Positions 4,783-63,991 are shown, numbered from the whole stretch's first letter. The stretch: DNA of 63,991 nt, filler included, from Hausera hauseri (GCA_046269625.1; 13 parts of 13 records of this genome joined end to end with filler, not necessarily neighbours in it), one strand, 5' to 3'. Translations and numbers: made by a program. Notes: generated by a model from the sequence alone, not told the origin.

Positions 4783-4789
4783 GGAGGTG
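4783..4789 (+). promoter_or_regulatory. Shine-Dalgarno GGAGGTG
   Basis: Strong Firmicutes-type RBS 4 nt before the ATG at 4794. Confidence 0.85.
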
Positions 4790-4793
4790 AAAG

Positions 4794-5709: not shown

Positions 5710-5780
5710 ACAAACCGGTATGAACAAACTTGATATAAATAGTGATGCAATTTTATTTCACGTTTGTCTTATTTATAAAA

Positions 5781-25653: not shown

Positions 25654-25834
25654 CGGTTAAGTCTAGGAATTGCTATTTACGTAACCCTTTCAACAAAGAT
25701 AACCATATGTCATCAGGTTACTTATAGAAATAAATTGAAATATAAAACTACAACGATTACCACTGTATGTTTGATAACCGTTGTGTTGTGTCTAGATATC
25801 TCCATTGACTTGCGATTGACATTTCTTTTTACAG

Positions 25835-26900: not shown

Positions 26901-27099
26901 AGACCTCGAACTCTGATCCGGTGCGAATAACACCAACCTCTGNNNNNNNNNNNNNNNNNNNNNNNNNNNNNNNNNNNNNNNNNNNNTTAATTAATTAANN
27001 NNNNNNNNNNNNNNNNNNNNNNNNNNNNNNNNNNNNNNNNNNTTTTTTTCCAACCGTGACTATGCGTGAATGCGCTCGTTGACCCATGCCTGCCTGTAC

Positions 27100-27480
27100 T
27101 GGCTGTTGAAGGCCTACATGAAATGAGTTAGTGGCCTTTCTACAATTTCAGCTATTATTGTCACATTTTTAGGTAGTCCTGGAGCAATAATTACTGAATT
27201 CCATGAATTATAACCACAATTATAAGCGAATACTACTTTATTAACTTGACATTCCTTTAATTGCACTTGTTGATAACTGATCCTTTGATACAGTTTATAG
27301 TTTTAAGGACGTCTTTCTTTACCGATGTTGGATTTGCATTTTGAAATTTGCCTATATCTATTGATGAAAGTTTTGCTGTTATTTCCGGTTTGGAAAAATC
27401 ATAGGCTTCTAATGCTTTTGTGATTTTTAAGCTGCTAATGGTTATTAAATATAGTAACAGGTGAATAATTTGTACTACCC
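27100..27480 (-). pseudogene. env: N-terminus of chuvirus-like/gB-type glycoprotein (env)
   Basis: Signal peptide VVQIIHLLLYLITISS, then LEAYDFSKP...SSIDIG and, after a frameshift, QVQLKECQVNKVVFAYNCGYNSWNSVI. Matches the AYDC...C-x-V...CG-x-x-S-x-x-S pattern of chuvirus-type G. Confidence 0.7.
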
Positions 27481-29084
27481 TATCTGAGACATTGGTGTCT
27501 TTGGAATTCATTAGCTTTGTAGGGCTAAATTTCTTGAGGATTTCATCCCAAGCTCCTTTTTTGGTTACACAATCTTTCGTTAGTTTATCCATGTGGTGGG
27601 TTAACTCCCTTACTATATGGTGTAATTTGACATCAACCTCTGTTTGATTTTTAAAGCTGACCACTATGCATCCCAATGCCATCAGTAGTCGATTTTGATC
27701 ACATTCATTTATTAATCGTGTCAATGCTTTATCTAGGCCTCCTTTCAGTTTATATTTTTGTAGTAATGTTGTAATTTGTGATGAGAAATTTCTAGCGATT
27801 TCTATTATGAACTTTAATGGAATCGTTTTAATTATTGGTATTTTGTTGAATTAATTTGGATTAGCTTTTTAAATTAATTGTTCTAAAAGTTCTTAAGTTG
27901 TTAATGTTATTTTTGTTATATTCGTTTCATTTCGATCCGACGTTCCCGTAACAGGATTTTTCGTTTGTTCATTTTCATGATCACTAATAGTAAATCGCTG
28001 GAAATTGTCGTATAATATATCTTCTAATGCTTCTCGTTGTTCCTTACGCCTTTTAGACAAAGGTCTTCTTCTTCTTTGTGTTTCTGTTCTTTCTTCTTTA
28101 GAATTTTCTTCGTAATCGCTTATTGGGTTAAAATCGCATTTTCGTGGTTTTTTTCCCTTTTCTTAGTACCAAATTCCATGGTAATCTGATGAATTGTTCC
28201 GGTAACGAGTCCATAATCTACAATGTAATCATTGTCAGTGGCTGATCTACCGTAAACATTGGTTTTCCCTATTATATTAGTTTCGAATACTTTTCTTCGG
28301 ATATCTGTAAATTTAGTGAACATTCCTGCTGTTACTTCGATTACTTTTTCCCACGTATTAGTTTTAATTTCTGTACTTATAATATATTATTGTTTTCTTC
28401 TATGTATTCTTCTTAAGCCTCTTTCAAGAGTTTTAAGTAGCTTTCTTGCTGCTGAAAAGCAAAATACATCGTCCTTTGTTATATGTAGGAGTAATGGTGC
28501 GCATTCTATTCTGCTAGTTAGTGGTAGCGACTCATATTGTCGTAAGGAATTCCATACGTCGTTAGGTGCTTTTTGTAATTTAGTTTCAATTATTTCAGTT
28601 ACGGATTCTGGATGTTCACCATATACTATGGAACCTGGGGGAATATTCATTTCCTGGATATTTCTTGGGTTTATGATTGGTAATAGTGTAGTTTTGGGAT
28701 ATTGGGTTACATTCGGTGTAAGAATGAGTTCATCGTCTTCCAAGAATTTGAACACTTCATCTTTGTTAATTACTTGTGGTTCATTTTTGGATGTACCTGG
28801 CTGTATTGAATCCCACATGGTTTCAAGTAATGTCGGTCGTTGGGGTGGAACCTTAGATTGGGAGAGTGGTGCAGCCAATCTATCGTTGTAAGGTTCTATC
28901 CATTCTCCAGTTGGTCCTGTGAATATTTATCAGAATTCATATCCGGATGTCTTTGAGCAATTGGTTCGATTACTGGGATTGCTCTTGACTCAGTGGTTTT
29001 TTCGAGTTTCCGTATCGCCGGGAAGGCTATTCATAATATCTTCTGGCTTTCTATTATCTGTGCTATATTGTACTCCACTAGCAT

Positions 29085-29470
29085 GGTTTTTGGTATTCGT
29101 CGAGATACCTTTGCACCATAATTTCTGAGTTATGACCACGATATATGTCTAAATATTTATAACTTCTATTGGTCTGTTCCATATGGTAAGTGGCGGTTAG
29201 ATTTGTTGGTTTTATTTTCAACGTGTTCAGTAATTCTGGCAATTGACGTCCGATGATTACTTTGCCTGGTAAATATTTATTCATGAATTCACTTATCGAC
29301 TTTTGCTGTTGAGGGTTGTATCGTTTACTGTATTCTGTATACTTTGTGCCTAGTATATTTGGATACACATGAATATTGAGAATTGTCTTTCCTTCTAAGT
29401 TTTTGGCAGTGATTTGAGTAAATACTTTTTGACCTTCTTTCGTTATGTATCTACCAGTGAGTATTATTTC
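29085..29470 (-). pseudogene. Inactive REX4/ISG20-like exonuclease-fold domain
   Basis: FTQITAKNLEGKTILNIHVYP...KYLPGKVIIGRQL...GHNSEIMVQRYLDEY. Confidence 0.45.
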
Positions 29471-31961
29471 TCTATCGTGTGCTACAGGTTCCTATACAGA
29501 TAATATGGGTGTTTCTTTAAGTAATTGTATTAAGTGTAATGGGTACTTATCTAGTAGTTGGATTTGACAACCTCCTTCATAGGAGTAATTGGGGAGTATC
29601 ATAGTTTCTTTGGAAATGATTATTGTTTTATTACTGACTTGTAGTCGCGCCTCTCCTTGATTGGTAATTATAGCGCCTGGCGGGTCGTTTCTTTCAATCT
29701 GGATGTCGGCATTTTTAAGTATGCTTTATCGATACCTTCCATACAAATAAGTCATTGTTTGGCAATATCTTCGAATTCTATTCGACCAGACTTCTTGTTA
29801 GCGAATATTTTATTCCAGCTTTGAACTGTATCTATGTCCAGTTGATGTAATTTTACTTCCATAATCAGGATAGTGTTACATGTTATTTCTCGCTGGGATG
29901 TCTTTCGTTCTAATATAAGTGTTTATTTGGGAAAATGTGATATGGTGATCCTTGATGGTTAAGTTTAATTTTGTATTCCTGTCGTAGGTTTGTTAGTTGT
30001 TGGGATAATGTGCCTTCTCTTTTTCATTGATCGCTAGGTAGATTAAAATTCTGATCTACATTAAACGTGCCGTAGATATGTGTTTCCTTTAGCTGTATTT
30101 ACCTAAATAACCATGGTAATTCAATTCCAACAATGAGTTTTCCACAGTGTAACTGTCTGCGACTTTCAGCGTATTTTTCCTTTTCTCGGTTTACATCTAA
30201 TTCAACTATTAAATCACATTTGATATTCTTTATTTTTATTCGATTGATTTCTGGTTCTTGCTGTTCTTCGATAGTTTTTTCTACTGCTATGAAGATCAGT
30301 AGCAAGTTTTTGATGTCCTTTGTTTCTGGCCATAGCATATACGGAAATTTATTATTTTGGATATCTGATACTTTTCGTTCCAATTGATTCAAATAGTTTC
30401 TCGTAATGAAGGGTTTTTCTAAAATAGATATCTTGGATGATGGTTTGGGTATGATTTGTTGATGTTCTGTTATTTGTGTAGGTATTAATAGTGCCGTAAA
30501 GGCTGATTTGGTTTGCTCATTAAAAGTTACTGAGTGGCGAGGTGAGGCACTTCTTTCCTTTCTGTTACTTTTCCTATAGTCTGAAGAATTTACTGTTTCA
30601 TTTGTGGAGCCACTATATGGCGGTACTGCTGAATCAATTTTTCTTTCATTTGGGTGCTTAGGATATTCTGGTGTCATATTTCCATTGTACCTGGATGGAG
30701 AAGTATTTCTATTTGATAGTGACTCATTTTGTATTGAACTATAATCTGATGATCAAGCATTTGTCATTATTATTACTTGGTCCAGCAGAAGGTGTTCGAT
30801 TTCGGTCTCTTTGACGACATGAATTGGGATTCCTATTATATCTATCCGATTCTCGTTGAGGTGGAGTATAGTAACGTTTTCTGTCATAATTTCCAGATTT
30901 CGAGTTGTTATACCTATTTCTATTATCATATCCTGATTTATATCTGTCTCTGCTATTATATCGTCGGTTATCTCTTTCTCTGCTAGCATTCCTATTGCAG
31001 TTACCATATCGTTCTCGGTTATCATCTCTTCTAAATCTCTCGCGACTTTTGCTTCGTCTGTCGTTAGGATGGTTGGTTCTTAGTCCTTCTGGCCGGTTAG
31101 TTAAATATTTTGTTCGGCTATCATCTCGTCTGTAATATGGATTCACTTCATTATTTCTATTATCATAACGATTTGGATTTCGATTATTACTGTACCTTTC
31201 TATACTAGGGTATCGACTTCTGTTATCATTTCTCTCTCTTGTGTAATCTCGTGGTCTATCATATCTCGCATCATTCTGCTGTCAATCTTCATAGTATCCT
31301 CTATTTTCTTATATGAGGTAACCGTTTGATTATTATTATAGTCCCTGGGTGATTGATTATAATTTCTTTTTTCTGGAGTATTACTTCTCTGTGATGTGTT
31401 ACCATCTTGTTGATTAGGGCTTTGGCTTTTCTAAGTATCTCTCCACGGTAAATTACTACGATTGGCTGAATCTGGTCTTATTAATAACGGAGTCGTGGCT
31501 ACTACTGCAATTTGTGTTTGATTAGTCCAGGCAGGTGTTTCATCTATCCAAGTTTCCATTCGTCTGGTATATTCTATCAACTCGTTAAAATTATTTGCTG
31601 TGTGGAATTTGGCTCCTTCTCGTAAGGGTGGTAAAAGTCCAAGTACAAATTGTTTCATGATTATAGCCCCAAAGCCTTCTGCATTCACACCAAAATATCT
31701 ATTCATTGCGGTTTTAAATCTATTAATGTATGTCGAAACTTCTTCATTTGTTTTCTTGTTTAGTTCCCGTTAATTCTATTTAGGGAGAGACTTTGTCTTT
31801 ATACTTCGTTTGAATTAATGGGTTGAACAAGGTTGTACTTATGCTTACGTTTATTATGGTANNNNNNNNNNNNNNNNNNNNNNNNNNNNNNNNNNNNNNN
31901 NNNNNTTAATTAATTAANNNNNNNNNNNNNNNNNNNNNNNNNNNNNNNNNNNNNNNNNNNN

Positions 31962-34530: not shown

Positions 34531-34532
34531 AA

Positions 34533-34913: not shown

Positions 34914-35322
34914 TTTAGTGACAAAGCAAAATGAAAAGACATCCATATTTATGCCACATTTTCTCAAATTGGTTTATTTTCGTTGTAAGCAATGGACAAA
35001 ATATGTACCAACCGGTTTGCTTTCATTGTAAACAGTAGACAAACGGTCAGTATTACCCGTGACGCTGTCTTTTTAAAAGTCATTCATAATAAATGCTCCT
35101 GCTGCTCTCGCAACTAGTTCACTGTCAAGTACTTGCCACCATCGTACCAAGTCTGAAATTAATAATCCACCAAAATTTTGTAACTGTTTCAGTTGATTAA
35201 CTACTGCCATAATGATGATGAATATTACTTCCTACCCGTATTTATAGTTTTTAAATTATTCAACTGACCAGTATGGCGTGCCTTATTCACAGAAAGAAAA
35301 AGAAACAGCGACATATATTTAT

Positions 35323-35817
35323 TTATTTGCATAAAATATAGTCAATACAAAGCCGTAGACATTTTTTGTAAGCACACTGTGGTCCATGACCACGATGCGG
35401 ACATCGGATATTGTTAAGTACTATCTTCAGTGAGCTGTTCGATGTTGTTGTTGAATTCGTCCTTATTCGAAACTCGCAAAACTGTGAATGGAGTTGTGTA
35501 AACTTTTGCCCGTCAATTTGATCTTTAATGTAAAATATTGTATTTTCAATGTCGAAACGATCACAAATCTCTGCCATAATACACGCCACACAGAAAATTG
35601 AATTGCCTTCAAACCAAAGAAGTCTATGACAATGTCAAAAGAGAAATCCATTTGTAATTTTCACTTTTTCCGTCAGGTCTTTCCACACAATACCGGGCTT
35701 GATTATGTACACAAGCGGTTCGAAAATGTTACCGACGTCCATAATGCATAATTCCTTCATTATGTACTAGGCATTATCATCTTGAAAAGTCTTAATGTCT
35801 ATAAATCCTGTCGCCAT
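35323..35817 (-). pseudogene. Polinton-associated DEDD/RNase H-fold nuclease-like gene with C-terminal C-H-C motif
   Basis: MATGFIDIKTF..*YIMKELCI...NGFLF*HCHRLLWFEG...FYIK...CPHRGHGPQCAYKK; one frame with two stops. Confidence 0.6.
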
Positions 35818-35896
35818 TACTCATCTGGTACAAAATCATTTTTGTTTATAACGCAAACAAAACAACTAAGTATTATTACTATTTTCATCACAATAA

Positions 35897-36342
35897 TTAA
35901 ATATGAGTGGTTTTGTCCATATCACCAAAGCCAAATTCTTTTCGTTCATTTCGTGTTGTTGTTGTTGTTGATTCATTGACGCAAAACAGTCCCCATTGTT
36001 ACGGTGACATTACACTGAATTTTTTATCTTCAAATCGAAGAAAAACGATTTGTGCGATTGTACTGCCAGAAACAACTTAATTTCACCACAAAAGTCTGAA
36101 TTAATGACACCGCTCAGAACCGTCAATCCGAGCTTTGCCAGTCCGCTTTTCGATAAAAGTTGGCCGTAGTAATCCGGTAGAATCGCCAACCGAATCCCAG
36201 TCGTTATGCATTTGATTGTACTGTCCGGATTTGTCGTATTGACATTGGAAAACCCATTGTAACGTGCACGGTTTGCTGTAACACGTCTCGATACAAAGGC
36301 ATTTTCGTCTGTTAAGATAATCTTTACATCATTCATTATCAT
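35897..36342 (-). pseudogene. dut: dUTPase, degenerate
   Basis: TGIRLA, YGQLLSKSGLA (motif 2), GVINSDFCGEI (motif 3), frameshifted ERKEFGFG (motif 5). Confidence 0.85.
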
Positions 36343-36439
36343 TATTCTTATGCCAATATTAAAAGTACTCGTATATTTATACTCGTTAATTCGGTTGATG
36401 GAAGAAGAAGAAGAACGGTAAAACAAGAAAATTTATTGA

Positions 36440-36855
36440 TAATTAAAATGTGCTTGAGCTACTCACTAAATTGGGCTTTTGATACCGGATTTTTCCTTGT
36501 ATCCTTGCAATTCAATATTCAGTCGACACTGTAATAAACCACCATTATCACCATCGGGTACATAAGACATTTCGCGACCGATAAAATCAAACAATTTCGT
36601 TTTCTGCGCCGGTAAATCTACAGATTGCTGTTGCACGGTCGATTTGTTCAACTTCAAATCCACGTTTAATTGATGCAGCGCATCAGAAACTTTATTCAAA
36701 TTTTCACCTGAAAGCCGATTTACACGATAGCCATAGTTGGGTGCACATAGAGACACTGGATCATTTAATGAAATCGGTACGGGCGTTGGCAGAAAATGCA
36801 TTTCATACTTGCGAAAAATTTGTTTCGGTAAAAATATCTGTGTTTGGCGCGACGA
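36440..36855 (-). pseudogene. Polinton SSB-like gene (divergent paralog, copy 3)
   Basis: LNIELQGYKEKSGIKSPI**VAQAHF aligns with LALNLKGFKERSGVKSTIWKM; the two stops restore to W and R by single changes. Confidence 0.55.
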
Positions 36856-36967
36856 NNNNNNNNNNNNNNNNNNNNNNNNNNNNNNNNNNNNNNNNNNNNT
36901 TAATTAATTAANNNNNNNNNNNNNNNNNNNNNNNNNNNNNNNNNNNNNNNNNNNNACAGGTATGGGT

Positions 36968-37224
36968 TTAGTGATTACAATACAGATCACAATTTTCAGG
37001 TGTTGCTTTATATACTGAAGGTATTCTTGATATAAATATATGTATGTATTCTTCTGCTGTTAGATTTCGATTTGCCGTAATTTTATACAAGGGTATTGTC
37101 CAACGTCGAACAGCTTTGTTATTTACATCTAGGGACTGAGCAGATATACAGATCACTAGGCTTAGCATTATAAATGTTGTTATTATTAATGAGCTAGAAT
37201 TTTCACTCCTTATCCTTGATTCTG
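36968..37224 (-). CDS. Signal peptide and start of env-like extension in frame with integrase
   Basis: SLIITTFIMLSLVICISA|QS directly after the GPY module in ORF 36968..37735; contig ends just after. Confidence 0.55.
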
Positions 37225-40200
37225 GTGGCGCTGGTTTGCATTGATTTACATGAATTTTTATGGCATTCACTTTGTTTCTTTTATTTTTATTTAAGTAAAC
37301 ATTAACTTCGTTCACTTTCTGAATTGTATAAGAACCTTTATATGGTCTATGTACTTTTGAAGTTTTGCCTTTTTTACTTAAAGGAGTATGCAACAAAACG
37401 TTATCTCCAGGTTTATAGTTATGTGATTTGGCCTTTTCGTCATAACGAGTTTTGTATTCTTTTTGACAAATTTTTATATGTCGTAAAGCAAAATTCCATA
37501 CGTATCCCAGTTTCTCTTCTAGTAATTCTTTATATTCCATATCTTTTAAATAAGAGATAGGCATTTTGAAATCTAAGTCAACCAGCATATATGCATCTCT
37601 GAGATACATCAAGTAAAACTGTGTTTCTTTCGTTACAGGATGAATCATGTTTCTGATAGCAAATAAACACGGTTTGATATATTCATCCCAGTCGTCTTGG
37701 CGTTCATTAACCATTGTAGCCAACATGTTTATCACTATTCCATTAAACCTTTCTACTGTTCCATTGGTTTGAGGATGATACGGAATTGTTTTTATTTGTT
37801 ATATCCGAAATATTTTTGATATATCTTCTATGACTTCTATAAAGTTTGGGGATTGATCTGTCAATAGTTTAGAAGGTGCTCCATAATTAAAGATGATCTC
37901 TTCAACAAAGGCTTGAGAGATAATCTGGACCTTCTGATCCGGTGTCAAAATTACTACCAGCCATCTATATAGTAAATCTACAAATACTAACATGTATTAA
38001 TTTTCATTCACTATCATTGGCATCGGTCCAAAAAGATCCATAGATGAAAATTCCATTGGAGCTGGTGGGCATTTTAATAGCTTAAGACGAGCTTTAATTT
38101 TTGAGCCTGTATTTCTATGTGTAGCATAGATGGGATAGCTTTTGCATCATTCTTGTACATCTCTTTGCATATTTTGCCAATAATACTTTCTTTTTAATCT
38201 GCCCAAAGTTCGTCTTACCGATTGATGTCCTCCCATCATGCCATCATGATACTGTGTTAAAAGTGTCTTTATGTCTTCTTGTGGGATGACTACAACTGAT
38301 TTTCCTTTATAGTTGCAGTATAATATATCATTTTTAATCTCGTAATTTTCGACAAATTTTTCGAGATGAGCATGGAGGTTGGTATCATTTGGTGTAATTT
38401 TCTTTTTCATGTACTCTCTTATTTGTTTTATTTTTTCGTCATTCTGCTGTCGCTGTAATAACGATTTTTCTTGATCCATAGTACTCCAAATGGCTGCTGC
38501 CATACGTCGTTTTTTTTTTCTTTTTGGTCTCTATCCTTAGGCATTCTCGAAAAGTAATGTGCTTTTGCGTTAGCCTTTCTGGTTTTACATTCAAATGTAA
38601 GATCATATGACTGGAGCAGCATTGCCCATTTTATTAAACAGCTATTTGAGTTCTTATGATTTTTCAGCCATTGCAATGGCTTATGATCAGTATATACGAC
38701 GATTGATTTTGTCGCCGATAAGTACTGACCATATTGTTCCAGTGCATATACAATCGCGAGTAACTCCCTCTCAATCGTAGAGTGGTTTCTTTCGTTTTTT
38801 CGTAATTTTCTTCCTCCGAACGATATTAGATGTTCTTGTCCTTTGTCTTCCATTTGTGATAACACAACTCCAATTCCGACTTTACTTGAATCCGTAGCTA
38901 AGAAGAATGGCTTTGATATATTTGGATAAGCTAATATTGGCGGGGATAACAAATTATCTTTTAACTATTGATATGCCTTTTGACATTCTTGAGTCCATAT
39001 GTGTTTGGAAGTTTCTTGTAGCAATGAGTGTAACGGAGCGGCTATTTGTTGACAATCCTTGACAAATTTTCAGTAGTAGCCTGTAAGGCCAAGAAATTTT
39101 CTAAAACATCGAATTACTTTTGAGATTGAAAAATCCTGGATTTTATTGATTTTTCCAATCTGAGAGCTAATGCCTTCTCTACTCACGGTATGACCTAAAA
39201 GTCAACTTTGGTTCAAACAAAACATCATTTATTAAGGCTCAATTTTATGCCAAGGAGTGCACATCTTTCTAGCATATCTTTTAGATGCTATTTATGTTGT
39301 TTATAATCTTTTGAAGCAATTATAACGTCATCCACATATCACATTATATACTGAGCGTCCATGGTAATTATATCCATTGCTGTCTAGAAAGTTGCTGGGG
39401 CATTTTTTATTCCGAATGCCATTCGGTTAAATTCGTAATGCCAATCCGATGTCAGGAACGCTGTTTTCTGTTATCTTTTAGTTTGTCCAGTATCTCCTCG
39501 ATTCTGGGTAACGGATAGGTATTGTCTATCGTTACTTCGTTTAAAGCCCGATAGTCTACACACATTCTTATCGATCCGTCCTTCTTTTGTACCATTACTA
39601 TCGGAGCTGCCCAAGGAGAATTACTTGGTTTAATTATATCACAATGTCTCATTTCGGCTATTATCTCTTTAGCCTTTTCTCTTTTGTCATAATTGAAACT
39701 ATACAGTCTCTTCTTAATGGGATTCTCCATACCCTGTTTCAATTTGATTTCACACTTGATTACAGATATTATACCCATGTCGTATTCATCTATTGCAAAT
39801 ATATCTTTATATTGCTGCAATATTTTGACTATGTCTTCTTTTCCCGCGTCCGTTAATAAACTTTCTTTACCGAACAAGTCGTAGTCATTCCAATCGATAA
39901 CAGTCTTTACAAGTTTTTGTAATCTTATTTTTGTTGAGATAGGTTTTAAGTTTATTCATAGGTTCGTTTCCGAAACGTATTCCACATTTGACATGTGTTT
40001 GCCGTCGTTGTTTTTCCATAAACTCCGACAATTCTTCCACAGTAGATACGATGGCTTCTGTCGCATTATTTTCTATATCTTTCACGATATATACATAGGC
40101 AATTCGTGCGCCTTTTCTCAACAGTTTTGATTTATTAGAGACATTGGCAATCTGAACAATTAATTGTTGTTCTCGGATGTTATCAATGGAATGAGCTATC

Positions 40201-40870
40201 CATAACTTATTTTTATCCATAAAGTTCATGTTAGGTTTAATGTAAACATCACCTTTATCTCTTCCTTCTACCAAGACTTTGAGTACTACTCCCATTCTGG
40301 GTGGTATCAGTACGTCTTCCTTGATAGATACAGTATCTTTTTTCCATTCTTCGTTTTTCGATATAATCAAATTTGTTGCGTCTCCATATGTGTACATATA
40401 TCCTTCAATTTTATCAAAGCATCACAGCCAAGAATAGCTTCTGCTACCAACGCGTCTGCTATTTTAAACTCTTGTTCAAGTTTTTGACCAAGAACATTTG
40501 TTTGGCATTTTAATAAATATCTAACTTGTACTTTTGTTCCAAATGCTCCAACGTTTGTAATATCTTCTGTTAGCTTTTGCAGCTTTTTCTTTAATGGTTC
40601 TGGCAAATGCTTCCGTGAGATCACTAAAGCTGATGCTCCGGTATCTATTATAGCAGTAATGGGCTATCAGTCTACCCAAATTATTGTTCCTGGTGTAACT
40701 TTTTTTCCATCTATGCTGGTTACTAAATCGTTCTTTGGAGCGGAAGGATAAAAGGTTAACTTCATATGGTTTGGATCGTAATTATCCGTGTCACTAGAAT
40801 AGCCCACATTTGTGTATTCATTTGGTGGGATAAAATGTTGTTGTTCCATTGGGTATTCATTCCATCTTTT
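37225..40870 (-). pseudogene. pol: Ty3/Gypsy pol (PR, dUTPase-like spacer, RT, RH, IN); relative of the 22041 element
   Basis: IIDTGAS; [27 protein letters not shown]; YVDD; TDSSKVG; ERELLA; TDHKPL; HDGMMGGH; KKGKTSK; KIHVNQCKP. Confidence 0.95.
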
Positions 40871-41391
40871 CACTTGTGGGATATCTGCCAGTAACGTTCT
40901 CCTTTTTTTGCTACGGTTCGTGATTAGACTCCATGTCTTTTTAATATCTCCCGACTAAAATTTTATCTTGTTTATCGGTGGTGTATTGTCATCATCGTTA
41001 GAGTAGGTTTTATTTTTATTTTTCTGTTTCCATTCAGCATTTTTCTTCATTAGAAAACAACTGGCTAAGGANNNNNNNNNNNNNNNNNNNNNNNNNNNNN
41101 NNNNNNNNNNNNNNNTTAATTAATTAANNNNNNNNNNNNNNNNNNNNNNNNNNNNNNNNNNNNNNNNNNNNGCATTGTCTTATCATGCATCTGCTCCCAA
41201 CAAACCAGACAAGTTTTCGACATTTTGAAATAATGAAATATTAATGCATGTAAATGTCGCATTGTATTGATTTTTTATTCAAATTTCATATCCAAATATC
41301 ATATCCACATTACTTGCTCAAATAAGACAACACGATATTTCCGTACAAGATTTATCACAACCAAAAAATAAGACTAACAATATGTGCATAT

Positions 41392-44300
41392 TTACAGTGC
41401 CACATGTCCATGAGGTAGTGTGTGGACTCAATCACTCAGGATCTGCCGCTTGTCGTCCAACCAATCTAGGGTCTTCTTGTGCAGTTCTACTGTTTGGATG
41501 TTATGATCCCTATATTGGATCCTTCGCATTTTCGATATTATGTGAGTCTGCTCCTGCAGAACTCTCACACAGACCACAAAACTGATCTTGTTGGTCCATG
41601 TAGTTCTTTGAATGCCCTTTGCTCTCTTTGATTTGGCCACATACGTCCAGAGCATACATTTTTGATCACAATGCCACGAAACGGGTGATGATCTTCCAAT
41701 TCACCTCGTCTTTAAATTTCCCGCAGACTTTCTTATTGGTGGTTGAAATATTTGGATGATCCTTTGGATAATCCGAGATATCCGTGTGCGGAGTAAATTG
41801 TGCAAAATCTTCAGACATGTCCTCAGTATGGATGTGATAGATAAAACTATCAATATCCACATATATATATATATATATATATATATCAGCTGCATGGACT
41901 TGAATGTTGGTACCATTGTATCGAATTGGAAGTGGTACATTAGGTTTTTGATAGGCCCAATATTGCCATACCCACATATATGGGCTTGTTGAATACTAAT
42001 GCCGTTTTCTGCATATGGATGCCTACCAAGTTCTCACATATATCGTGCTGTTGTGGACGTTAGGCTTGGCAATAAGCTTCTTTGCCCCCTTCCAGTCACA
42101 AACTAGATCGGTGTTGATCCTGCTACGGATATTGTCCATCATCTTGCTAAAAACGATGTTATTATACAGCTTAAATTGATCTTTTTCGAAATCGTTCTTG
42201 GCATTTGTCCGCAGCTTGGTATTGAGATCAATGTAGGATTGCAGCAACATGGACTGGCTGAATTGGACGCTTCTATGGAACTTAGTAATGCGGAGTCCAT
42301 GTTTAACTGCCTGTTGGGGATTTATGTAGTGGGCAACATACCTCTCACTATTACCCAAATGACAGAGAAGCTTTCGCTGCTTTCCATAGGGCGGTGGCCT
42401 GTTCTCAGGGCGGAAAGGCAGCTGTTGATGCCTTGTGTGGATGGAAGCCGGATAATCCATATCCACCTCGAGTATGTAGCCCGTATCTCCAGTGGGATCC
42501 AGGTCCAGGATAGGGATGTCTTCAGGGTGCTCAACCCACTTAAAGTTATCATATGGCAATGCGGCGCTCATTGCCCATCCATACAAGTTGTTGGCATCCA
42601 GGTAGGAAATATATAATGACTACTTTGTTGAGTCGTATTCAGCCATACACTTGTTATTGGTTTTGCTACACCGGTGAATGGCTTGGCATATTCCTCCTCT
42701 AATGCTCTTTCGATCATAAGGATCATGTCGTAATCCTTAATGATTTGCAGCCTAATACCGGTATAGCACAGCATTGCTACCCAGCTCATCCCTGGAGCCG
42801 TGAAGAAATGAGCCTGATCCAAAGTATGGCTCTTCATGGTAATATCCCTAAAACTCTCAAAGACATCTATCAGCAGCAGCACATCGGTTTGTAGATATAT
42901 ATATCACTATATTCCCCTAATGGTCGGCATTGGAATGCATGCCAGACGTTCTGAGCATGCTAGTAGTCCTCATCACTGATATCGCAGTCCGACAGCTGGC
43001 TGTAAAAGTCATTGGTCGGTAATGAGGACTCATGAGGACCAACATGCTCAGTGAAAGTGATATATTTCTCCTCACTGTTAGGGATCACATCTATATTGCC
43101 ATCAAGCTTGCTTAATTCTCGGACTATATAGTGACTGTCATAGCCGCTGAGATAATGGAATATAACAGGCACATATTTGCATGTTTTGCAGCGAAAATTG
43201 CAGTTGTTACATGCTGCGCCCCGATATGCACCTGTAAAATGGCAATGATATTCGACTTTCCACTTTGCCTTGGTGAAGAACTTGTCGCGCAGTAGCATGA
43301 TGTTGCCTTGTGCCATTCTTCATCTTGTTTCCACGCCATGCTCATATTATCCTTATGTTGTTGCAACATGTTTTCAAGCTCATAAGCCATGTCTTCAAGT
43401 CTCTTCGTGAAATGTGCTGCTGCACCTTGACCTCTGAATAGATGTTATTCACTGTCCATTCCTTTGGTATACATACAATACGATAATAATTCATGATAGT
43501 GGTATGCCGTTGTAGAGCTACATTGAGTACTGAGACTGCATGTGTGATCTGGCCTAGAAAGGAACCTTGATCTTCTCGAATTCCTTAAATTCAATATAGT
43601 CCTCTTTGGGAAATACTGGCCTTACACAATAATTGTTGTTACAGGACATATTGTGCTGTTTAAGCTTGTCCACGGCCTCTTCACCACTGAAACGGGGCAA
43701 GCATCGTTTGCATATTTCGATTCCGTGTTCATGCTTTGTTATTTGGGATCTGACTAGACGTTCAAGGTTCTTTATCCAAACAATGTTTCTTATCACCATC
43801 GTCTAGTAGGAGCAGATCCTATGATCTTCCAATTCAGCATTGCATATTTGTAAGGGGTAGAATTTGTCATCATCCAATCCAAAGATATTGATAGACATGT
43901 TGATGCGGCTGAACTTCTTGATTTCATCTATAGATGGAAGGAATGTGAAACACTGAAAATCGTAGTTGTATTGGAGATCATTATATAGCCAAATTCGATC
44001 TGCTGCATGTTTTTGATCCCGTACGAGTTTACATAAAGCACATACATGAAGCTCTTGTTGTCATTATGGACACTGATGCAAGCATTTTTCTGCTGAATCC
44101 ATTACGGAAGCTGAATATATGAACTGCCTCGCATGGGGGAGTATCTGTGTACATATATAAGCAGTCTCTTGATGGTTGCCAGAGTACATCCACTCTTCTT
44201 ATCCTGGCTTTCATCGGCTTCACTGATCAGCTTCGTATGCTCTTCATTCAGCCATTCAGCTATATTTGTGTTTTCCAATATGGGCCTATTTTTGGCCTTG

Positions 44301-45103
44301 AAGACCCTATTTGATTCTTCAGCATCGACATTCAAGTATGTGGCCTCAAGTTTCATATTAACCTTAAGGGCCTTGAGCTCAGTCATATTGTCATGGATTA
44401 TCCCCTTTGTTTTTTCCTTTGCATATTCCAGGAACTCCTTGATTGTTGTTTGCCCAGCTGCATCAATGACATTTTCGGACTTTTTCTTTTAATGCAGCAG
44501 CATCAACTGACCGCTATCTTTGCTTTTTGGCGGAGCTGCTACGCCTGTTGGGTTTAGGGCATCTGATAGGCCTGATGCTCACTAAATATAATCTTCTTGG
44601 ACTTTTATGCGAAGTCAGTCAAATGATGCTTGTGATCTTCATAGAACTGTATGTATTCTCCATCACATACAGGCTCACATCTTGGGCAAATATAATAGAG
44701 GATGGTATTGAATTTGTGGCCGTAATAGCTCCTAATGGTATTGTGGCAATTCTCAGGGTTATGTATTGTACATGTGCAATACACATATGAATTGCACCTT
44801 TGGTTTTCATTTGACACAAAAGACGTTATTTGCATATTGGTACTGAATATTTGTTTTTTCAACTTGGCGAAGGATATCAAGTGCTGTTTATGGACATGGT
44901 AAAATTCATCGGACCCTGTCCTGCACACTACCTCACATGTAGTGCATACATAATACTCAACCCTGTTGAACATATGCCCAAAGTATTTCATCATAATGCT
45001 ATGGCAAATTTCCGGTCCATGGATTGGAGCCAAGCAATCTGTAAAGTTTGCACATTTAACCAAAGCAATTATTTGATGAACACAAATAAAAAAAACTTAC
45101 CAT
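41392..45103 (-). pseudogene. polB: Polinton-type pPolB, near full length, second subfamily, with N-terminal Cys/His repeats and endonuclease VII-like insert
   Basis: SYIQLP; WIKNLERL; YHCHFTGAYRGAACNNCN; FHYLSGYDSH; FFTAPGMSW; YLDANNLYGWAM; KLYNNIVFSK; YVDIDS; GKFKDE; RAKGI; TLPHGH*. Confidence 0.93.
41861..41886. repeat. (AT)13 microsatellite inside polB
   Basis: Read directly from the sequence. Confidence 0.97.
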
Positions 45104-45630
45104 TCGCGGAAGTAAATTTGGAAATAATGAAAAATATAGCTATGTCAACTTACACTGTCTAATTTTTGAAAATTGATGAAGTAAAACAAAACACATCTAC
45201 CAAAATAATTTTGATGCAGTAAAACAAAACAAATGGAAGGAAATAATTTTAATGGTGGGGTAAATTTGGCACTGCATATTGTTGCCAATATGTTGTATTG
45301 TCAACATTATGCTTTTGTTTTAATGCGTCAAATGATTTAAATATGTGGCGGCGCCATATTCGGTTTTCATATATGCGAAATCGATTAAAGCCATCATATT
45401 CTTCGAATAATGCATACTTGACCTAATATTCGATTTCGAATCGATATTTCTTCGAGTTCGAATAATGTTTTCAATAATCTGACAGCAGATTCGGATTATA
45501 CACATATGCTTTCGTATCCATGTACGCTTANNNNNNNNNNNNNNNNNNNNNNNNNNNNNNNNNNNNNNNNNNNNTTAATTAATTAANNNNNNNNNNNNNN
45601 NNNNNNNNNNNNNNNNNNNNNNNNNNNNNN

Positions 45631-50434: not shown

Positions 50435-51285
50435 CCTTTCCCCCCCCCTTCCTTTAGCAGAAAATCACTTTATCAGCAGCTAGGGAGACCCTTGTGACCG
50501 CTATTTGTCACCTCATTTGGAATTGTTGCAGAGCTGTCAAAGCTGCAGATTTCAGGTTGTACGGAAAAAGGGGAAATGTAAGTCAAAGCACTCGAGCCTG
50601 TCGTAGAACACCAGCACTGCTGTTTTCTAACTAATGTCCCAAATCTTGGAGGTCCTTAACTCAGAACTACAGAAAGCAGAACTTGTTTGGGTCTTGTTTG
50701 TTTTTCAAGGCTTTAATGTGAACAGTATGTTCTTAATGAGGCCTGTGATTTCTCCCTCAAATGTGGCGTTGTGGTTCAAATTAGAAAGCCGTCTCCTCCT
50801 TCCATCTCCCTCTACCAAAATGTTATTTCCTTCTTTCACCTTATGCCAGAATGTCATTCCTTTCTTGCACCACTTGTGACAATGTCTCATCTTTAATGTT
50901 CATGACTATCATTATCCTTTCTGACTTGGCACATGCTCTGGCAATTCAGTCTGGCACTTTATTACATATTGTACCACAAGCTGCTGTTCATTATGCTATA
51001 ACCTGGGAGGTTTCTGCCAAAGCTATCAGTCATAAAACGATGCTCCATTTTCAGTCAGAAAGTTTACAGTTTTTTTTTTACTGGCTGACTGTAAAAAAGG
51101 TACTGTAATGCTAATCAAAATTTCACCTAGATACAACATTAAAATACATACACTTGATGCTTCAAAGTCCCTGGTGGATAGGTACAGCCAGCAGAGTCAT
51201 AGTACACCGAAGCTTGACCAAGGATGTTAAGCAACTGCTCCTGAATGTACATGGTGTCCATTCCTAACATAGCTGTAAAGAAATT
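50435..51285. other. CpG-depleted, vertebrate-like genomic DNA with a possible minus-strand terminal exon
   Basis: About 8 CpG counted in ~850 nt of moderate GC; minus strand TTCTTTACAG then YVRNGHHVHSGAVA* (about 51227-51272). Confidence 0.45.
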
Positions 51286-51294
51286 AAAAGTGCA

Positions 51295-52230
51295 GATAAT
51301 TCTCCCACTAATAAGGATCAGTTAGTGAATATTGCCGATTATATCGCTACCCGAGATAACTTTCTATTCTATCTAACTCAAAACAATCGAAGAAATATAT
51401 TAGGAGACAATTCAAAAATTTTAGAGTGAATTTCGAAACTCTAAGAAATCGCCTGGCCATTTATGCATCCAACCCAGAGGTGATCACAATAACCCTTCCT
51501 TTTGGTGAAGGAATCCTAGGCAGAGTCCTAAACGTGTTATATACCTACAAATGTAAACGATTAGAATTTCCGTTGATTACCGGCACTCCATGTTATTCTG
51601 AAATACCCGTTAAATATAACGAGGAAATCCAATACGTTCAGCCTATTGCTAGAGTGCTCCTGGCATCCCATACAATATCTACGGAAATTCAGAATTGTTC
51701 AGCACTAAATAAACCATTTATCAAGTATGATAATCAAGACATTTGGGTTAGATTACCATATCGCGATAGAGTTATAGAAAAACCAAAGAAATTAACGATG
51801 ACAAATTTAAAACATGCGATTGAAACCAATATGTTTACCGACGTGTTTAAATCCGCACAACATAGTAAAAAATAAATTGATTCATTCGTGAAGATTTTAG
51901 CACATTCCAGACAGAGAGAACAAATAGTTAATCGCGGAATACACTGAGTAATCGACGACACAGCCGGAGAAGGAAATTTGGATTGATTATGGACACCTGA
52001 TGCCTATACTAAAATCGTTTTAAATTTATGGTATAAAATGTGGGGAGGATTCTTCAAATTTTGCCAAGTAGCTTCAGGGTTTCTGGCCATATACTTCATT
52101 ATACAAACCTTGAAAGTTTGTGTTAACTCTGTATTAAATGCCTATGAGATTTACAACCTAACGGGATTGTCACTGAGCATAATAGGAGCTCTATTTTCCC
52201 CACTTGGACAATTTATTAAGGCATATCATG
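51295..52230 (+). pseudogene. env: C-terminal half of chuvirus-like/gB-type glycoprotein (env)
   Basis: VLYTYKC...PCYSEIPV...VQPIARVL...C...W...WGGFFKFCQVASGFLAIYFII...AYEIYNLTGLSLSIIGALF (two hydrophobic segments). Confidence 0.8.
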
Positions 52231-52733
52231 AGAAACAATGGCGAGGTAAATTAAAAAAACATGTCGACTATAAATCAGAGAAACAATTTCCTAAGGACAC
52301 CTCATCAAGTTCAGGTGACAGCAATGCCCCTAAGTATTATCCTACAACAAGGATTCCTAAGTATACGAGGAGAAAATTCAAGTTTATGAAGCCAAATAGA
52401 AAGGATAAACACAAATTACCTGCTGAACCATACAATAATAAAACATTGCCCATTTGTAAATTACCAAATCTAACAGATTTAACGGATCATTATACAAAAA
52501 GGGAAAATTATATAAAGTTACGTAGCTGACCAAAATACTCTCAGGAAGAGATACGTCAATCCATTATTACACGGAACATGGAAAATAATCGAGTAACATT
52601 ACCTGTCTCACCCAAAATGGGTACGTTATCCTCAATACTTTATCCTCAAGTAACTAGATCAATAAAAACTCAATCAGAGAGATAATCTCATTTAACTACT
52701 TCCGAACTTAACAATAAACAACAGACAACATTA

Positions 52734-55198
52734 ATGCACGTCAGTTGCTATCTAGACTTGATTGAACTCAAGGATAAACTCAAAGTATCAGAAAATGATA
52801 TTCAATCACTGGAGAGTTTAACGGTCATTTTATCTAATAGTACCAACAGACATTGTTCGTCTAGTTACACTTTGATGGAATCTCATATTGATGACCACAA
52901 CGATGTATTAACGTTCCTTGAACTATTACGAGGCAATAGATTACATACAACAGCCAACTTTGGTATTTTTGACTTGAACGCTATGGTAGATACAGGAGCC
53001 AATGTCGCGCTAATAGCGAAACATGCAATTCCAGAAGAATTACAATCTCAAATAAAATTGGCTACTAAAGACTTACCTGGTACTATTTCGGCATTTCAAC
53101 AATGCAGTAAACCTTACGAATATTGGAAAAGTGAACCATGGATTTGTAATGATTACTTTGATCCAAGATGCATTTTAGGTATGAATGTATTACGAAAATT
53201 GGAAGGAGTACACATAAATTTACAATCGGGATCATTTTGTCCCAATAATGAAGATAAACACCTTAATTACAACAAAACAGACATATGGTTAGGACATGTT
53301 GAGAAAATACCACCCAATTGTAGAATGGTTATACATGCTAGCACAATTTTTCCAGACAATAGTATCATTGCGTTTATTCCGAAAACTCTGAAATGGACTT
53401 AATTACCACATTATTGCGTTAACGTAATTGGAGGAACTATTCCATTAGAAATTTTAAACCCAACCCCAAAATATGTCACGTTGTTCAGAAAATCAAAAAT
53501 TGAGCAGGCCCTTGAAACAATTCGTCGTGAGAATTACGATAACAAAGTCGCGACCGTATCTGCCACATTACAAAAAAATGCCGAAGATATATTAAACGTT
53601 GTCCTTGCAAAAGCGAAGAAAAATCTATCAGATGAATATCTAGAAAACTTCTCAGATCTCTTTTTTGAGTATCTTGACATTTTTGCAAAGAATGAAACAG
53701 ATATCGGATGAACTGATTTAATCAAATTCAAATTATCATTTCTGACTGACCCATTAACAGGAAAAGAAATAGATTTGTTGCGACAACCCATACCAAAATG
53801 GTACAATCCTCTAAAAGCACTCCAAAAAAGCAGTTGGGGAACAAATTCAAGCAATGCTCGATAAAGGTATTATAGAACCAAGTCAGTCACCGTGGCCTTC
53901 TCCCATAGTTATGTTCAAGAAAGCTAATACGACTAAAAACCGCATCTGTGTAAATTATGTTACCTTAAATAAACATCTGATGAATCATGCTTATCCGATT
54001 CCCAGAATACGAGATATTATAGATGAGCTTAAGGATTGTAAATATTTCGCAACTCTAGATTTACAAAGTGGATTTTGGCAAATTCCCGTAGAGAAAGAAG
54101 ATTGATGGAAAACTGCATTCAAGACGCATACCGGATTCTATCAATTCACTCGTATGCCATTTGGTTTAAAAACAGCACCCGCATTCTTTCAAGAATTTAT
54201 TCGCATGGTGCTAAAAGGAGTACGAGGTTTATCATACATTGGTGATATTCTCATCGCGTCCAAGACATGGTCTGCGCATTTAGCTAAATTAAAAGAAGTC
54301 TTCGATCAAATTAGACTTGATATATTAAAGTTAAATCCAAAAAATGTGAATGGTGTAAGAAAAAAGTTAGATATTTTGGATTTGTCGTTTCCAACCAAGG
54401 AATTTCAACTAGTTCTGATTTAATATCCAAAATATTGGAATATCCCTCACCAAAAAATGTCCACGAAATGAAAGCTTGGTTAGGTTTTGGAGGATTTTAT
54501 GCTAAATTTATACCTGACTTTGCGGAAATCAACCAGCCTGGACATAAACTTTTAAGAAAGGACCACAAATGGGAATGGACAGAAGAGAACCAAAATGCCT
54601 TTGACGAGATCAAGAAACGAATGGTATCAGCACCTATATTGAGATACCCAGATTTTTCATTACCATTTATTTTGAAAACCGATGCTAGCATTAAAGCGAT
54701 CAGTTATATATTAGCCCAGCAAAATCCAGAAGAAACAACTGAGCACGTAATCGCCTACGAAGGACGTAGTTTAAATAATGCAGAACAAAAGTACTCAACC
54801 ACTGAATTAGAGTTACTAGCTATTCGTGATCGATTGCGACATTACGAATATTACGCTTACGGTCATAAAATCATAATATTTACTGATCATAAGGCACTCT
54901 TATTTTTACGCTGCGACAATAGACATGTATCAAGTCGACTCCAAAGATGGAAGTTGGAACTTTTGAATTATGATCTTGAATATCGATATTATCCTGGCAA
55001 AGAAAACATAGACGCCGATGCGCTTTCGAGAATGCCATACGATAAGATAGTAGCTGCAGTTTATAAACCATTAGATAATGAGAATGATAAACAACTCAAT
55101 GAGAAAAACATTAACGACATGTTACAAGAACAACGCCAAATCCAAGTACGAAATATCGTGACCTTACAAAACCAAGATCATTTTATTGTTCAAATCAA
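52734..55198 (+). pseudogene. pol: Ty3/Gypsy pol (PR, RT, RNase H) downstream of env
   Basis: AMVDTGANVALI; ILGMNVL; SPWPSPIV; DLQSGFWQI; MPFGL; YIGD; TDAS; TELELLA; TDHKAL; ADALSR. Confidence 0.95.
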
Positions 55199-60003: not shown

Positions 60004-61964
60004 ATGATTTGTAGCACAAGTAACATGCTGTTGCCTTAAGCTATTCTTCTTCTTGCTACTTGGACATGCTCATTGTATCTTTATGATGCTGCTATATCTT
60101 CAAGTCGTTTAATGAATTGAGCTGCTGAGCCTGAACCTTTGAATAGAACTGGTTCACTGTCCAGTCCTCTGGCATACATGCAATATGATGAGAGCTCATG
60201 ATATTGGTATGCCGTTGTGCTGCTATGTTTGGGATTAGGACTGAAACTGTGAACTGGATGCAGGATCGCTTCAAAGTCACAATAGATAACTATTGGGACA
60301 TTGATCTTCTTCGCGAACTCCTTAAATTCAATGTAATCCTCCTTGGGACATGCTGGCCTGGTACAATAATTTTTGTTTATGTACATCTTGTGCTCCTTCA
60401 GCTTCTCCACAGCTAACTTACCGCTGAAATGGGCCAAGCATTGTTTGCATACTTCGATTATTTTCTTGTGTTTTGTAATTTGGAATCTGACTAGACGCTC
60501 AAAGTTTTTTATCCAGATGAAATGCCTCTTTTCACCATTATCTAGTAGGAACAGATCCCTATGGTCTTTTAATTCAGCATCACATATCTGCAGGGGATAA
60601 AATTTGTCCTTCTCATCCAATCCCAAGATACTGATTAATATACTGTTGAGTCATCCGAATTTTTTGACTTCATCTATGGATGGTGGGAACTTGATACACT
60701 GGAAGTCATAGTTGTGCTGCACACCTTTATATAGCCAAAATCGTAAAGCATTATGTTGATCCTGTACGAGTTTTGATATAATGGCATACATGAAACACTT
60801 GTTGTCATAAGTATGGACATTGATGCATGCCTTTTTCCTTACGATCCATTCCGAAAGCTGAATATAGAAACTGCACAGCATTGGAGAGTACTTGTGCACA
60901 TACACAAGCAATTTCTTAATTGTTGCCAGAGTCCATCCGCTCTTCTTATCTTGGCTCTCCCCGGCTTCATGGATCAGCTTTTTGTGCGCCTCTTGCAACC
61001 ATTCTGGTATATTGGTGTTTTCCAATATGGGCCTATATTTGGTCTTGAAGGCCCTATTGGATTCTTCGCTATCAACATTGATATATGTGGCCTCCAGTTT
61101 CATATTCACTTTAAGGGTTTGAGCCCCACCATGTTGTCCTGGAGAATTCCCTCTGTTTCTTCCTTTGTATATTACAGGAACTCATGGAGTGTTGTTTGAC
61201 CATTTGTATCAATAACATAGCTGTGGCATTTTCTCTTTAATGTAGCGGCATCAACTGGCGAGTCTTTTTTACTTTTTGTTGGAGCCGCGGCGTCTGATAT
61301 GGCTGTGTCTGATGCGGCTGCACGTTTCAATTCAGTAGTATGCTTCGCAGCTGCTGCACCAGATCCAGCAGCATAATGCGAAGCATTATACTGCGAAGCA
61401 TCATATTGCGTAGCAGATGCATCAAAATTATGTTGCACATTGAAGATAGTCTACTTGGACTTTGATGCGAAGTGACTCAAATGATGTTTGTGATCATAAT
61501 AGAACTGTATGTAGTTTGTACCATATACAATCTCGCATCATGGACATATATAATATTCGATCCTTTTAGATTTGTATCCAAAATACCGCTGCATCGTTTC
61601 ATGACACTGTTGCGGATTATGTGCTTTGGGTGTGCAATAAGCGTAGGAACCGCACATCGGAATTGCATTTGGGACACTTGTTGCCATTGGCATACTACTG
61701 TTGAATATTTCTTTCTTCGATTCTGTGAATAAATCCCGATGCTGTTTATTGTGCTAATTGTAAAATTTCTTGTAACCGATCCGTCACACTAACTAACATG
61801 CACGACACACATAGTATTGAGTCCTGTTGTATTAGTATCCAAAATGATATTGCATCACACTATGGCAATTCTGCTCCTCATGTTTCTGCGCCATGCAACA
61901 TTTGTAGAAGTTGCAAATCTAAACAAATCAATTATTTGAGGAGCACAAATAAGAAACGCACCAT
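60004..61964 (-). pseudogene. polB: Polinton-type pPolB 5' half; close relative of 41392-45103
   Basis: KVNMKLEATY; KKSGWTL; NKCFMYAI; WIKNFERL; VIYCDFEA. ATG at 61964 followed by a 43-nt GT-AG intron (61919-61961). Confidence 0.92.
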
Positions 61965-63300
61965 TCTTGGAAGAGAATTTGGAAATAATGAAATATGTAG
62001 TCATGTCAACGTGCACTGTTTATTTTTATTAATTTTTATTTTAATTTGATAATTGATGCAATAAAACAAAACACGCATGTAAGGAAAAATAAATAATTGT
62101 AATGGTAGGGTAAATTGTGCACTGCATATTGTTGTCAAGGTGTTGCACTTGTATTGCTTGCACACTGCATTTGTACATTTGCTTTAATGCATCAATTGAA
62201 TAAAAATGTTATGTGCGTTAAATTTACTTCATTCTCTTGAAATTCACAGTGAAACAAAATATTCACACCTAAAATTATCGATTTTTGAGCTTTAAATTAT
62301 TCAAATATTCGACTTGTGAACCTATAGTCGAACTTCTGACGTCATAATCGGACTCTCTTCGCATACCTTTCACCTTGAAAATCAAGTTAATTAAAGCACA
62401 CAAACTTTTGAAATTTTCAGTGTTAATTTACTGGATAATGATTCATCGAACAGGCCCATTTTATTTCTATACAATGTTTTGGCACATGGATAATCGTTTA
62501 AAGCTATCATATTCTTTGAAACACATAAGTTGCATCGAGTTTTCAAGTTCGATTATCTGTCATCGGATTCAGATTCTTCATATATGGTTTCCTATCTGTG
62601 TGCACTATTAAATTTATCGATTTCAGTGTGCTTCATCGCCAATTTCACCGTCAATTGTGAAATCAAAATAAGCATCGTTTTAATTACTTAACATTTTTAG
62701 GTACTTTTTATTTGTTATTAAACCTTGTTTTAATACACTGTGGTGCACTGCACTGCACCAATGTTAATTGCCCTATAGGTTTCCACCAATTGAGATTCGA
62801 ATGACGTAATCAGATTCATCGATTAACGTACGATTGACCGAGTTTTCTAGTTCGAATAGCTAAATATTCGACTCGGAAGCTGGAATTCGAATATCTGTCA
62901 CCATATTTCTATTCGGTACATGTGGGTTTCTATCCAGCCCCGCTACTAGATTTATCGATTTTTGCATCACTGGACTTTAAATGCACATTTAGCTTAATTC
63001 AAAATATTGATTTTATACCTATATAGCACATTTTCGTGGAATAAATTTAATGTATGAAGGGGTATTCGGACATGAGGAATCGAATGCCGTTGTTAGATTT
63101 TTCGAAAATTTGATATTCAATAAACTGGCCAAAAAATTTCGAATTTCAAATATTCGACTAGATATTCGCGATCACCATACTCGACTTACTATATGTCCCC
63201 ACTAAATATTGTATCGAACTTTGATTCCTTATGACCTAAAAAGCTATGGAAAGTGTACAGCAGTTGAATTTTGGATCGATATTATTCGAAATCCACTCGG

Positions 63301-63880
63301 TCGATTTAAATTCAAATTGCACATTCACATAGTGTATCGTATTTCCAATCGATTGCACCTGGTCACATGTCATAATCATCAATATTGGAAATATCGGAAA
63401 TCCGATATTATTGATTTTTGCACACTTACGCATGTACTGCGCACCTGCACATTGCATATCAAGATGCATCTCAACATGTTCTATCCATTAGCACTTGGTC
63501 CCGACCAATTCTACCAATCCTAAACCGTACAGCTACAAAAGTGTGAAAAGTGCAAAAGTTCTATGGCAACGGTGCTTAACAGCACCTACGCACTGAGCAT
63601 TTCCCGATCGGTAGTGCACCGGGTAAACTACCGATTAGTACATATGAGATGACGATATTATCGATTTTTATTTTATACCGGAAAGGCCTGTGGGGAGTCT
63701 GTCTCAGTTGCCATTTATTCGAAAACTAATTCATCGATTTAAATTCTAATTGCACATTCATATAGAAAATCGATTTTGCACTCGATTGCACCCGGTGCCG
63801 GGTGCCAATCATTAATATTGGAAATATCGGAAATCCGATATTATTGATTTTTGCACTTACACATGTGCAGTGCACCTGCA
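63301..63880 (+). repeat. Imperfect ~150-bp direct repeat (63301-63450 and 63736-63880) with internal hairpin
   Basis: Shared TCGATTTAAATTC.AATTGCACATTCA and AATATTGGAAATATCGGAAATCCGATATTATTGATTTTTGCAC. Confidence 0.85.
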
Positions 63881-63991
63881 CTGTGAACCAATCTATAGTG
63901 CACTAATGTGCACTATCGATCAGTACTTTGTCACGATCGATTCGATCAATACTGCATCATGCAGCGATCGATTTGTGAAATGTGCAAAAAT

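Follow-up and report, generated by a model that had tools for sequence, protein, structure and literature searches.

Is the glycoprotein gene on one 4.8-kb contig part of the same element as the Ty3/gypsy pol genes that follow it, and could Pol in that case be synthesized as a tail on the envelope protein? The window (the whole 63,991-nucleotide stretch of DNA that we analyzed) consists of 13 short contigs with N spacers between them. The env-pol arrangement considered here lies within contig 50435-55198, and mobile-element proteins are encoded on several further contigs as well. An earlier note on this DNA had proposed a lineage with gag-env-pol order in which the enzymes are tethered to the budding membrane. 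We regard it as quite probable that the copy on this contig, decayed and truncated at its 5' end, belongs to a multicopy Ty3/gypsy element family in which a gB-type env stands in frame ahead of the protease, likely within one gag-env-pol polyprotein.

Extent of the element and its copies

Evidence on copies came from a single sequencing run (X1), possibly from the source sample of the window, in which depth is not equal to copy number. We placed 4831 contigs of this run along the stretch, mostly 85-95% alike, and the retroelement family of the copy on contig 50435-55198 (the query copy) is multicopy. Summed contig depth is 1.1-6.1 in positions 50435..51229 and 361-8854 from the bin 51230-51388 onward. 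Because depth collapses to 1-6 upstream of ~51230, the query copy appears to be truncated at its 5' side against an unrelated flank, with the cut falling around 51230-51390. For the flank outside the element (50435..51229, no strand assigned), a six-frame comparison with Pfam gave nothing convincing, the single weak match having an E value of 0.032, and tblastn with the long relatives described below matched nothing 5' of 51363. An extension of env 5' of ~51365 in other frames had seemed possible by eye, but its profile support was nil (E 2).

We found no signal peptide, fusion loops, gag, integrase, or LTRs on contig 50435-55198, and no direct repeats of at least 40 bases. Among all matches found, none exceeds 33% identity to the env of the query copy or 46% identity to its reverse transcriptase (RT). 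The query copy is decayed, 5'-truncated, and divergent, a dead copy of its element.

An envelope gene precedes the protease in one reading frame

The first recognizable gene of the element is the C-terminal half of an env encoding a predicted gB/chuvirus-type fusion glycoprotein (51423..52298, plus strand), broken by stops at 51873, 51945, and 51984. Read through with X at the stops, this frame matches PF24664 Monjiviricetes_fusion over profile positions 343-649 of 653 (Pfam, E 1.7e-33), and the query copy covers positions 360-648 of 669 in an env profile that we built from 14 relatives (E 1.3e-57). Its identity to the relative P0002 is 33% over 282 amino acids. When the PDB was searched with the profile of alignment A3 (84 env sequences), herpesvirus gB occupied the first 34 of 40 rows with a best E value of 1.6e-4; the gB-matching stretch starts either at the boundary of the env part kept in the query copy or 5' of it, and from the query copy env domains I-II (the region of the cysteine-bridge classes C1/C2/C3) are missing. 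The read-through protein used as a single-sequence PDB query returned chance matches only. As judged from the profile matches, the env of the query copy is of the HSV gB type (class III, chuvirus-like).

Near the end of env we observed a predicted transmembrane anchor at 52068..52124 (plus strand; best 19-residue hydropathy window, 1.83), followed by a second, weaker hydrophobic segment at 52149..52205 (plus strand; hydropathy 1.41), which is likely membrane-associated and not spanning. The anchor window has a hydropathy of at least 1.6 in all 13 relatives compared, and the second segment reaches this value in none of the 13. A signal-like stretch lies ahead of env in 10 of these 13, namely those that include the env start. 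This topology is a prediction from hydropathy.

Downstream of env, a basic segment that would form the cytosolic tail and spacer (52299..52970, plus strand) leads in frame to the protease and is interrupted by stops at 52527-52529 and 52683-52685. The retropepsin-type aspartic protease itself (52971..53159, plus strand) has its DTGA motif at 52989-53000. In the whole read-through frame, its match to Pfam RVP falls slightly below the cut-off of 20.7 bits (19.9 bits, E 9.6e-4), and the protease ORF by itself clears that cut-off with 21.4 bits. A linker between protease and RT (53160..53711, plus strand), which contains stops at 53400 and 53709, continues the env frame and aligns with the matching linker of the polyproteins at two metagenomic loci, L001 and L002, at 24-26% identity. 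The four starts named in the earlier note (GTG at 51426, ATG at 52038, ATG at 52734, and TTG at 53481) do share one frame, and the frame 51360-53711 is interrupted by point stops alone (51873, 51945, 51984, 52527, 52683, 53400, and 53709). Stop positions and Pfam place env 5' of the protease in one frame, and PF24664, hydropathy, and RVP together bear out the note's reading of a glycoprotein with anchor and basic spacer 5' of a DTGA protease.

RT and RNase H follow the protease as the note had described, whereas its placement of RT in the env frame did not hold for the query copy: the RT runs in another frame from ~53824, and the env frame resumes at ~54324-54338. The N-terminal part of RT (53824..54336, plus strand) has a stop at 54103, and its catalytic motif is degenerate (YIGD, 54235-54246). 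The two RT pieces match RVT_1 with E values of 6.5e-6 and 2.4e-10 and are 40-45% identical to the RT of env-pol relatives. The RT thumb/connection and RNase H (54324..55198, plus strand) are open to the contig end and match RT_RNaseH_2 (E 3e-32) and RT_RNaseH (E 2.4e-30) in Pfam. Two frameshifts thus break the RT-RNase H region of the query copy, and the contig stops short of an integrase. The order of RVP, RVT_1, RT_RNaseH, and RT_RNaseH_2 is that of a Ty3/gypsy Pol, and the best RT and RNase H matches are Ty3/gypsy-type polyproteins; both support the earlier assignment to this group.

Most copies of the family lack the spacer stops

The spacer is the segment on which continuity between env and pol depends, and we asked whether it reads as protein. 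Positions 52299-52970 contain 2 stops in 224 codons of the env frame, compared with 14-25 in the other five frames. Shuffled spacers had a mean of 16 stops, and two or fewer occurred in 0 of 20000 shuffles. We then considered the 588 run X1 contigs placed on 52380-53060. The stop at 52527-52529 is absent from 99% of the depth (37 contigs) and the stop at 52683-52685 from 90% of the depth (12 contigs), while across 52380-53060 every indel stays below 60% of the depth. Since most copies are without them, both stops appear to belong to the query copy and not to the family. The remaining stops sit in domains or linkers that relatives carry uninterrupted.

The copies also differ from one another in a manner that depends on the env frame. 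Where a difference falls on a third codon position of the env frame, it is shared by fewer copies than are first- and second-position differences (p 0.0013; 40 of 44 differences). The bias persists in the spacer alone (p 0.0023), and the other frames give p values of 0.46 and 1.0. This pattern is expected if the family has been selected as protein in the env frame while the query copy decayed. Among the run X1 matches listed, no contig spans env to protease, and the open frame is assembled from short overlapping pieces.

A leaky stop between separate, in-frame env and pol ORFs, read through at low frequency, would leave one of the observed stops as a genuine feature of the family. Both 52527 and 52683 are indeed stops in the query copy, and at the second some 10% of the depth is without the majority difference. 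That minority may be the query copy and its close kin, however; 99% and 90% of the depth read no stop at these positions, and relatives have none there. We therefore consider a leaky stop very unlikely and favor an uninterrupted env-pol frame in the family.

Relatives encode env and pol in a single ORF

An HMMER search with the read-through protein returned 280 proteins at an E value of 0.001 or below, and we drew relatives from the 150 matches listed. Among 19 long or top-ranked proteins of these 150, a protease lies 3' of env in the same ORF in 11, and 5 of the 11 run on to RT and RNase H. The others comprise P0116, with an integrase before env; P0145, which is BEL/Pao-like (DUF5641 with PF24664); and six proteins with env only. 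Three more polyproteins (P0152, P0155, and P0167) have env and then RT. Other searches were less productive: two queries of a protein word index with the read-through sequence, covering proteins of longer or similar lengths, recovered 0 of 4888 and 0 of 7214 candidates, scans of viral contigs found no relative, and of two metagenome scans the first found none and the second found the loci L001 and L002. L002 encodes a single ORF of 3703 amino acids that runs from two zinc knuckles through env, two proteases, RT, and RNase H to integrase. L001 has a similar layout with an open 5' end. Neither locus has an LTR pair, and their ORFs begin at the contig edge.

All relatives that have both env and pol domains keep them in one ORF. 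Because most copies of the family lack the spacer stops and intact relatives carry an env-PR-RT-RH-IN ORF, the in-frame env-pol arrangement is real and not the product of a nested insertion; on this evidence, env is upstream of pol within the same element in the family of the query copy. Gag domains lie ahead of env in L002, P0006, P0031, and P0045, which bears out the gag-env-pol order proposed for intact relatives. For the family of the query copy, we infer a gag-first order from these relatives, which are just 24-33% identical to it in env.

Several relatives contain additional domains. Tandem aspartic-protease domains are found between env and RT in P0006, P0008, P0152, L001, and L002, with up to seven stretches recognized by Pfam (P0152). 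A separate ORF 3' of pol encodes an RNase_T/DEDD exonuclease in L001 (10617-12107, E 1.4e-5) and L002 (12085-13473, E 1.1e-3), a dUTPase is present at residues 622-742 of P0167, 5' of env in an env-first polyprotein, and residues 848-903 of the L002 ORF, between gag and env, give a weak ubiquitin-like match (E 0.018). By eye, a hydrophobic extension follows the integrase in L001, L002, P0003, and P0008. The env-PR-RT-RH-IN polyprotein P0003 (HBK71150.1) is filed under a Flavobacteriaceae MAG and likely reflects eukaryotic contamination of the bin.

Phylogenetic placement and the possibility of two juxtaposed elements

In a tree of env sequences (81 of 131 rows with full cover), the query copy branches off first among those on the side of protease-fused envs, with an SH-aLRT of 88 (below 95) and a top identity of 32%; stand-alone envs of ~650 amino acids lie on the opposite side. 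Envs in this tree were labeled "protease downstream" on the basis of a motif search, and the label may be false for P0025 and P0034. RT trees, thinned to 58 of 127 and to 55 of 111 rows, leave the query copy unplaced, with top identities of 44-46%. The RT phylogeny suggested in the earlier note thus gave no position for the query copy, and a position within the env-first clade was not rejected (AU p 0.41, 0.36, and 0.61). By eye, the env N-termini of the best relatives resemble the Platyhelminthes C1a rows in the supplement of PMC13524379, a likeness from which no firm host inference follows.

These placements bear on whether chance could have brought the two halves together, either by leaving the 3' env of a pol-env element beside or under another Gypsy insertion or by misassembly of two repeats. 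The contig does cover just a short part of a repeat present in high copy, and its RT is not firmly within the main env-first clade. Against such an origin, no LTR, gag, or direct repeat of at least 40 bases lies between env and protease; family depth is unbroken over the junction, which is tiled by overlapping contigs; the frame is kept; the nearest env relatives are themselves protease-fused; and AU tests do not reject grouping of the RT with the env-first clade. Chance juxtaposition is accordingly a very improbable account of the locus, and a single element with env ahead of pol remains our reading.

Other mobile elements in the window

The earlier note had also raised a link between the query element and contig 27043-31861, which carries a second gag-env element on the minus strand (27043..31861): a decayed gag end, an RS/RD-rich region, extra domains, a hydrophobic signal, and an env N-terminus. 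This contig is colinear with residues 44-1484 of P0039 at 40-64% identity, and its env N-terminus (27475-27147) matches the env profile with E values of 3e-11 and 1e-14. Since the two contigs do not overlap, they were compared by way of P0039, whose env C-terminal half is just 25% identical to the env at 51423-52298, far below the level of one family. A link is therefore unlikely, and contig 27043-31861 probably represents a different gag-env family. Between its gag and env, positions 29081-29491 (minus strand) look exonuclease-like by eye and have no Pfam match.

Two more contigs of the window, 22041-26942 (plus strand) and 36956-41071 (minus strand), carry Gypsy pol sequences 40-49% identical to L001 and L002. 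The former also has a 3' exonuclease-like ORF (26419-26733), and in the RT/RNase H tree it joins the env-first clade (SH-aLRT 94). Judging from these similarities, both are probably further members of the env-first group in the sample. Positions 1-5609 appear by eye to contain a BEL/Pao-like gag-protease that runs into bacterial-looking genes within ORF 3587-4717, and the contig is possibly chimeric. Contigs 5710-9945, 31962-36855, 41172-45530, and 60004-63991 form two pairs of related contigs with 69-75% DNA identity; by eye, they carry fragments resembling the protein-primed DNA polymerase of Polinton-like elements.

A possible Bcl-2-like segment ahead of env in some relatives

Directly 5' of the env signal, a putative Bcl-2-like helical segment is found in P0002 (residues 52-113), P0005 (9-70), P0039 (~1190-1325), and the window at 27518-27850 (minus strand), and a similar segment is visible by eye just before env in the L001 ORF. 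The corresponding region is missing from the query copy. In the PDB, a profile of four sequences (P0002, P0005, P0039, and window 27518-27850) matched Bcl-xL best (E 2.8e-4); the set was picked after a hint from Pfam, so this comparison is partly circular. The Pfam Bcl-2 family matched P0005 (E 9.6e-4) and P0002 (E 0.2), both below its cut-off, and did not match the window segment 27518-27850. The predicted fold of the segment on contig 27043-31861 is poor (pLDDT 56). The matches from a fold search with this low-confidence model were all generic helical ones, the best at Z 6.4; a poxvirus Bcl-2-like protein ranked 40th and Bak 49th, and comparison with the Atlas gave one uninformative match (0.76).

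A broader proposal would place the query copy in a deep env-first Ty3/gypsy lineage with a one-chain proteome, in which Pol is loaded as the tail of Env and a Bcl-2-like domain, an anti-apoptotic accessory like those of large DNA viruses, precedes the env signal. We offer this as a tentative and rather doubtful idea. If the Bcl-2-like domain is real, it deserves its own study. The term "Bcl" is absent from the accessible text of PMC13524379 and PMC5408684, and within the accessible portions of the literature searched we found neither Env-tail loading of Pol nor a Bcl-2-like domain in such elements.

A candidate route for Pol recruitment

How might an element with this layout produce its enzymes? 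In the route we propose, gag, env, and pol would be translated as a single polyprotein, with an internal signal peptide through which the ectodomain of Env would enter the ER lumen. Transfer would then halt at the single anchor, and the tail together with PR-RT-RH-IN would remain cytosolic and membrane-bound; the prediction of one membrane span fits a cytosolic Pol. The protease of the element would release the enzymes, probably upon clustering at the assembly site, in keeping with what is generally known of cleavage by retropepsins and signal peptidase. Gag, Env, and Pol would be made in equal amounts, and Gag-Pol frameshifting would be replaced as the means of recruiting Pol. Tethering of Pol to the budding membrane, as the earlier note had it, is a plausible hypothesis. 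The query copy itself is incapable of this route.

The main rival accepts the order and frame as described and holds that a dedicated message, spliced or with an internal start, is the main source of Pol, with no tethering by Env. Foamy viruses produce Pol from such a message. The distance that separates the conserved WG motif from the first protease motif varies widely among relatives (131-391 residues, compared with 316 in the query copy), and a spacer of such variable length could contain splice or start signals. On the other hand, an open spacer with an env-frame third-position bias among copies would be needless if it were spliced out, and the single ORF in all relatives with both domains also argues against a separate message. 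We judge this explanation unlikely, and continue to favor synthesis of Pol as an extension of Env.

Comparison with known systems

The gene order, which the earlier note implied might be new, is already in print. Chary and Hayashi (eLife 2026, PMC13524379) have described GAG-ENV-POL Ty3/gypsy "errantiviruses" with an HSV/gB-type ENV from Nematoda, Bryozoa, and Platyhelminthes. In its accessible text, that study reports that these elements are not monophyletic in POL and that some have ectodomains with two flanking membrane segments, assigns the chuvirus-type glycoprotein of BEL/Pao elements to the same glycoprotein family, and cites Sacco et al. 2022 (J Gen Virol, doi 10.1099/jgv.0.001739), on non-canonical nematode endogenous retroviruses, for nematode elements in which ENV and POL are flipped. 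It gives the ORF order; neither "polyprotein" nor "single ORF" appears in its main text, and its figures may show ORF structure. As far as can be told from that text, the family of the query copy resembles these elements in its Ty3/gypsy Pol, its gB-type env ahead of pol, and its multicopy nature; it differs in that the query copy is broken and partial, the comparison being one of descriptions. DEDDy exonuclease ORFs have been reported in rotifer LTR elements (Rodriguez et al. 2017, PMC5408684), and those ORFs, as presented in the accessible text, are alike in kind to the ORFs of L001 and L002.

With the order already published, the query copy represents one more divergent family, and what we add is sequence evidence for env and pol as one selected reading frame. 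This frame points to a candidate mode of Pol loading, as the tail of Env and in stoichiometry equal with Gag and Env. The relatives show a group that gathers accessory domains, in the form of repeated proteases, an ORF for a DEDD exonuclease, a dUTPase, and possibly a Bcl-2-like segment.

The nematode ERVs of Sacco and colleagues reportedly have a continuous gag-env-pro-pol ORF on a metavirus backbone with an RNA-virus glycoprotein, and are said to be confined to nematodes. Set against this description, continuity from env to protease is supported for the family of the query copy, and continuity from gag is shown solely in L002. Canonical errantiviruses (gypsy, ZAM) and env-bearing BEL/Pao elements are likewise LTR retroelements with a captured viral fusogen. 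Their env follows pol, however, whereas the env of the query copy does not lie 3' of an integrase: it precedes the protease, and in the same frame.
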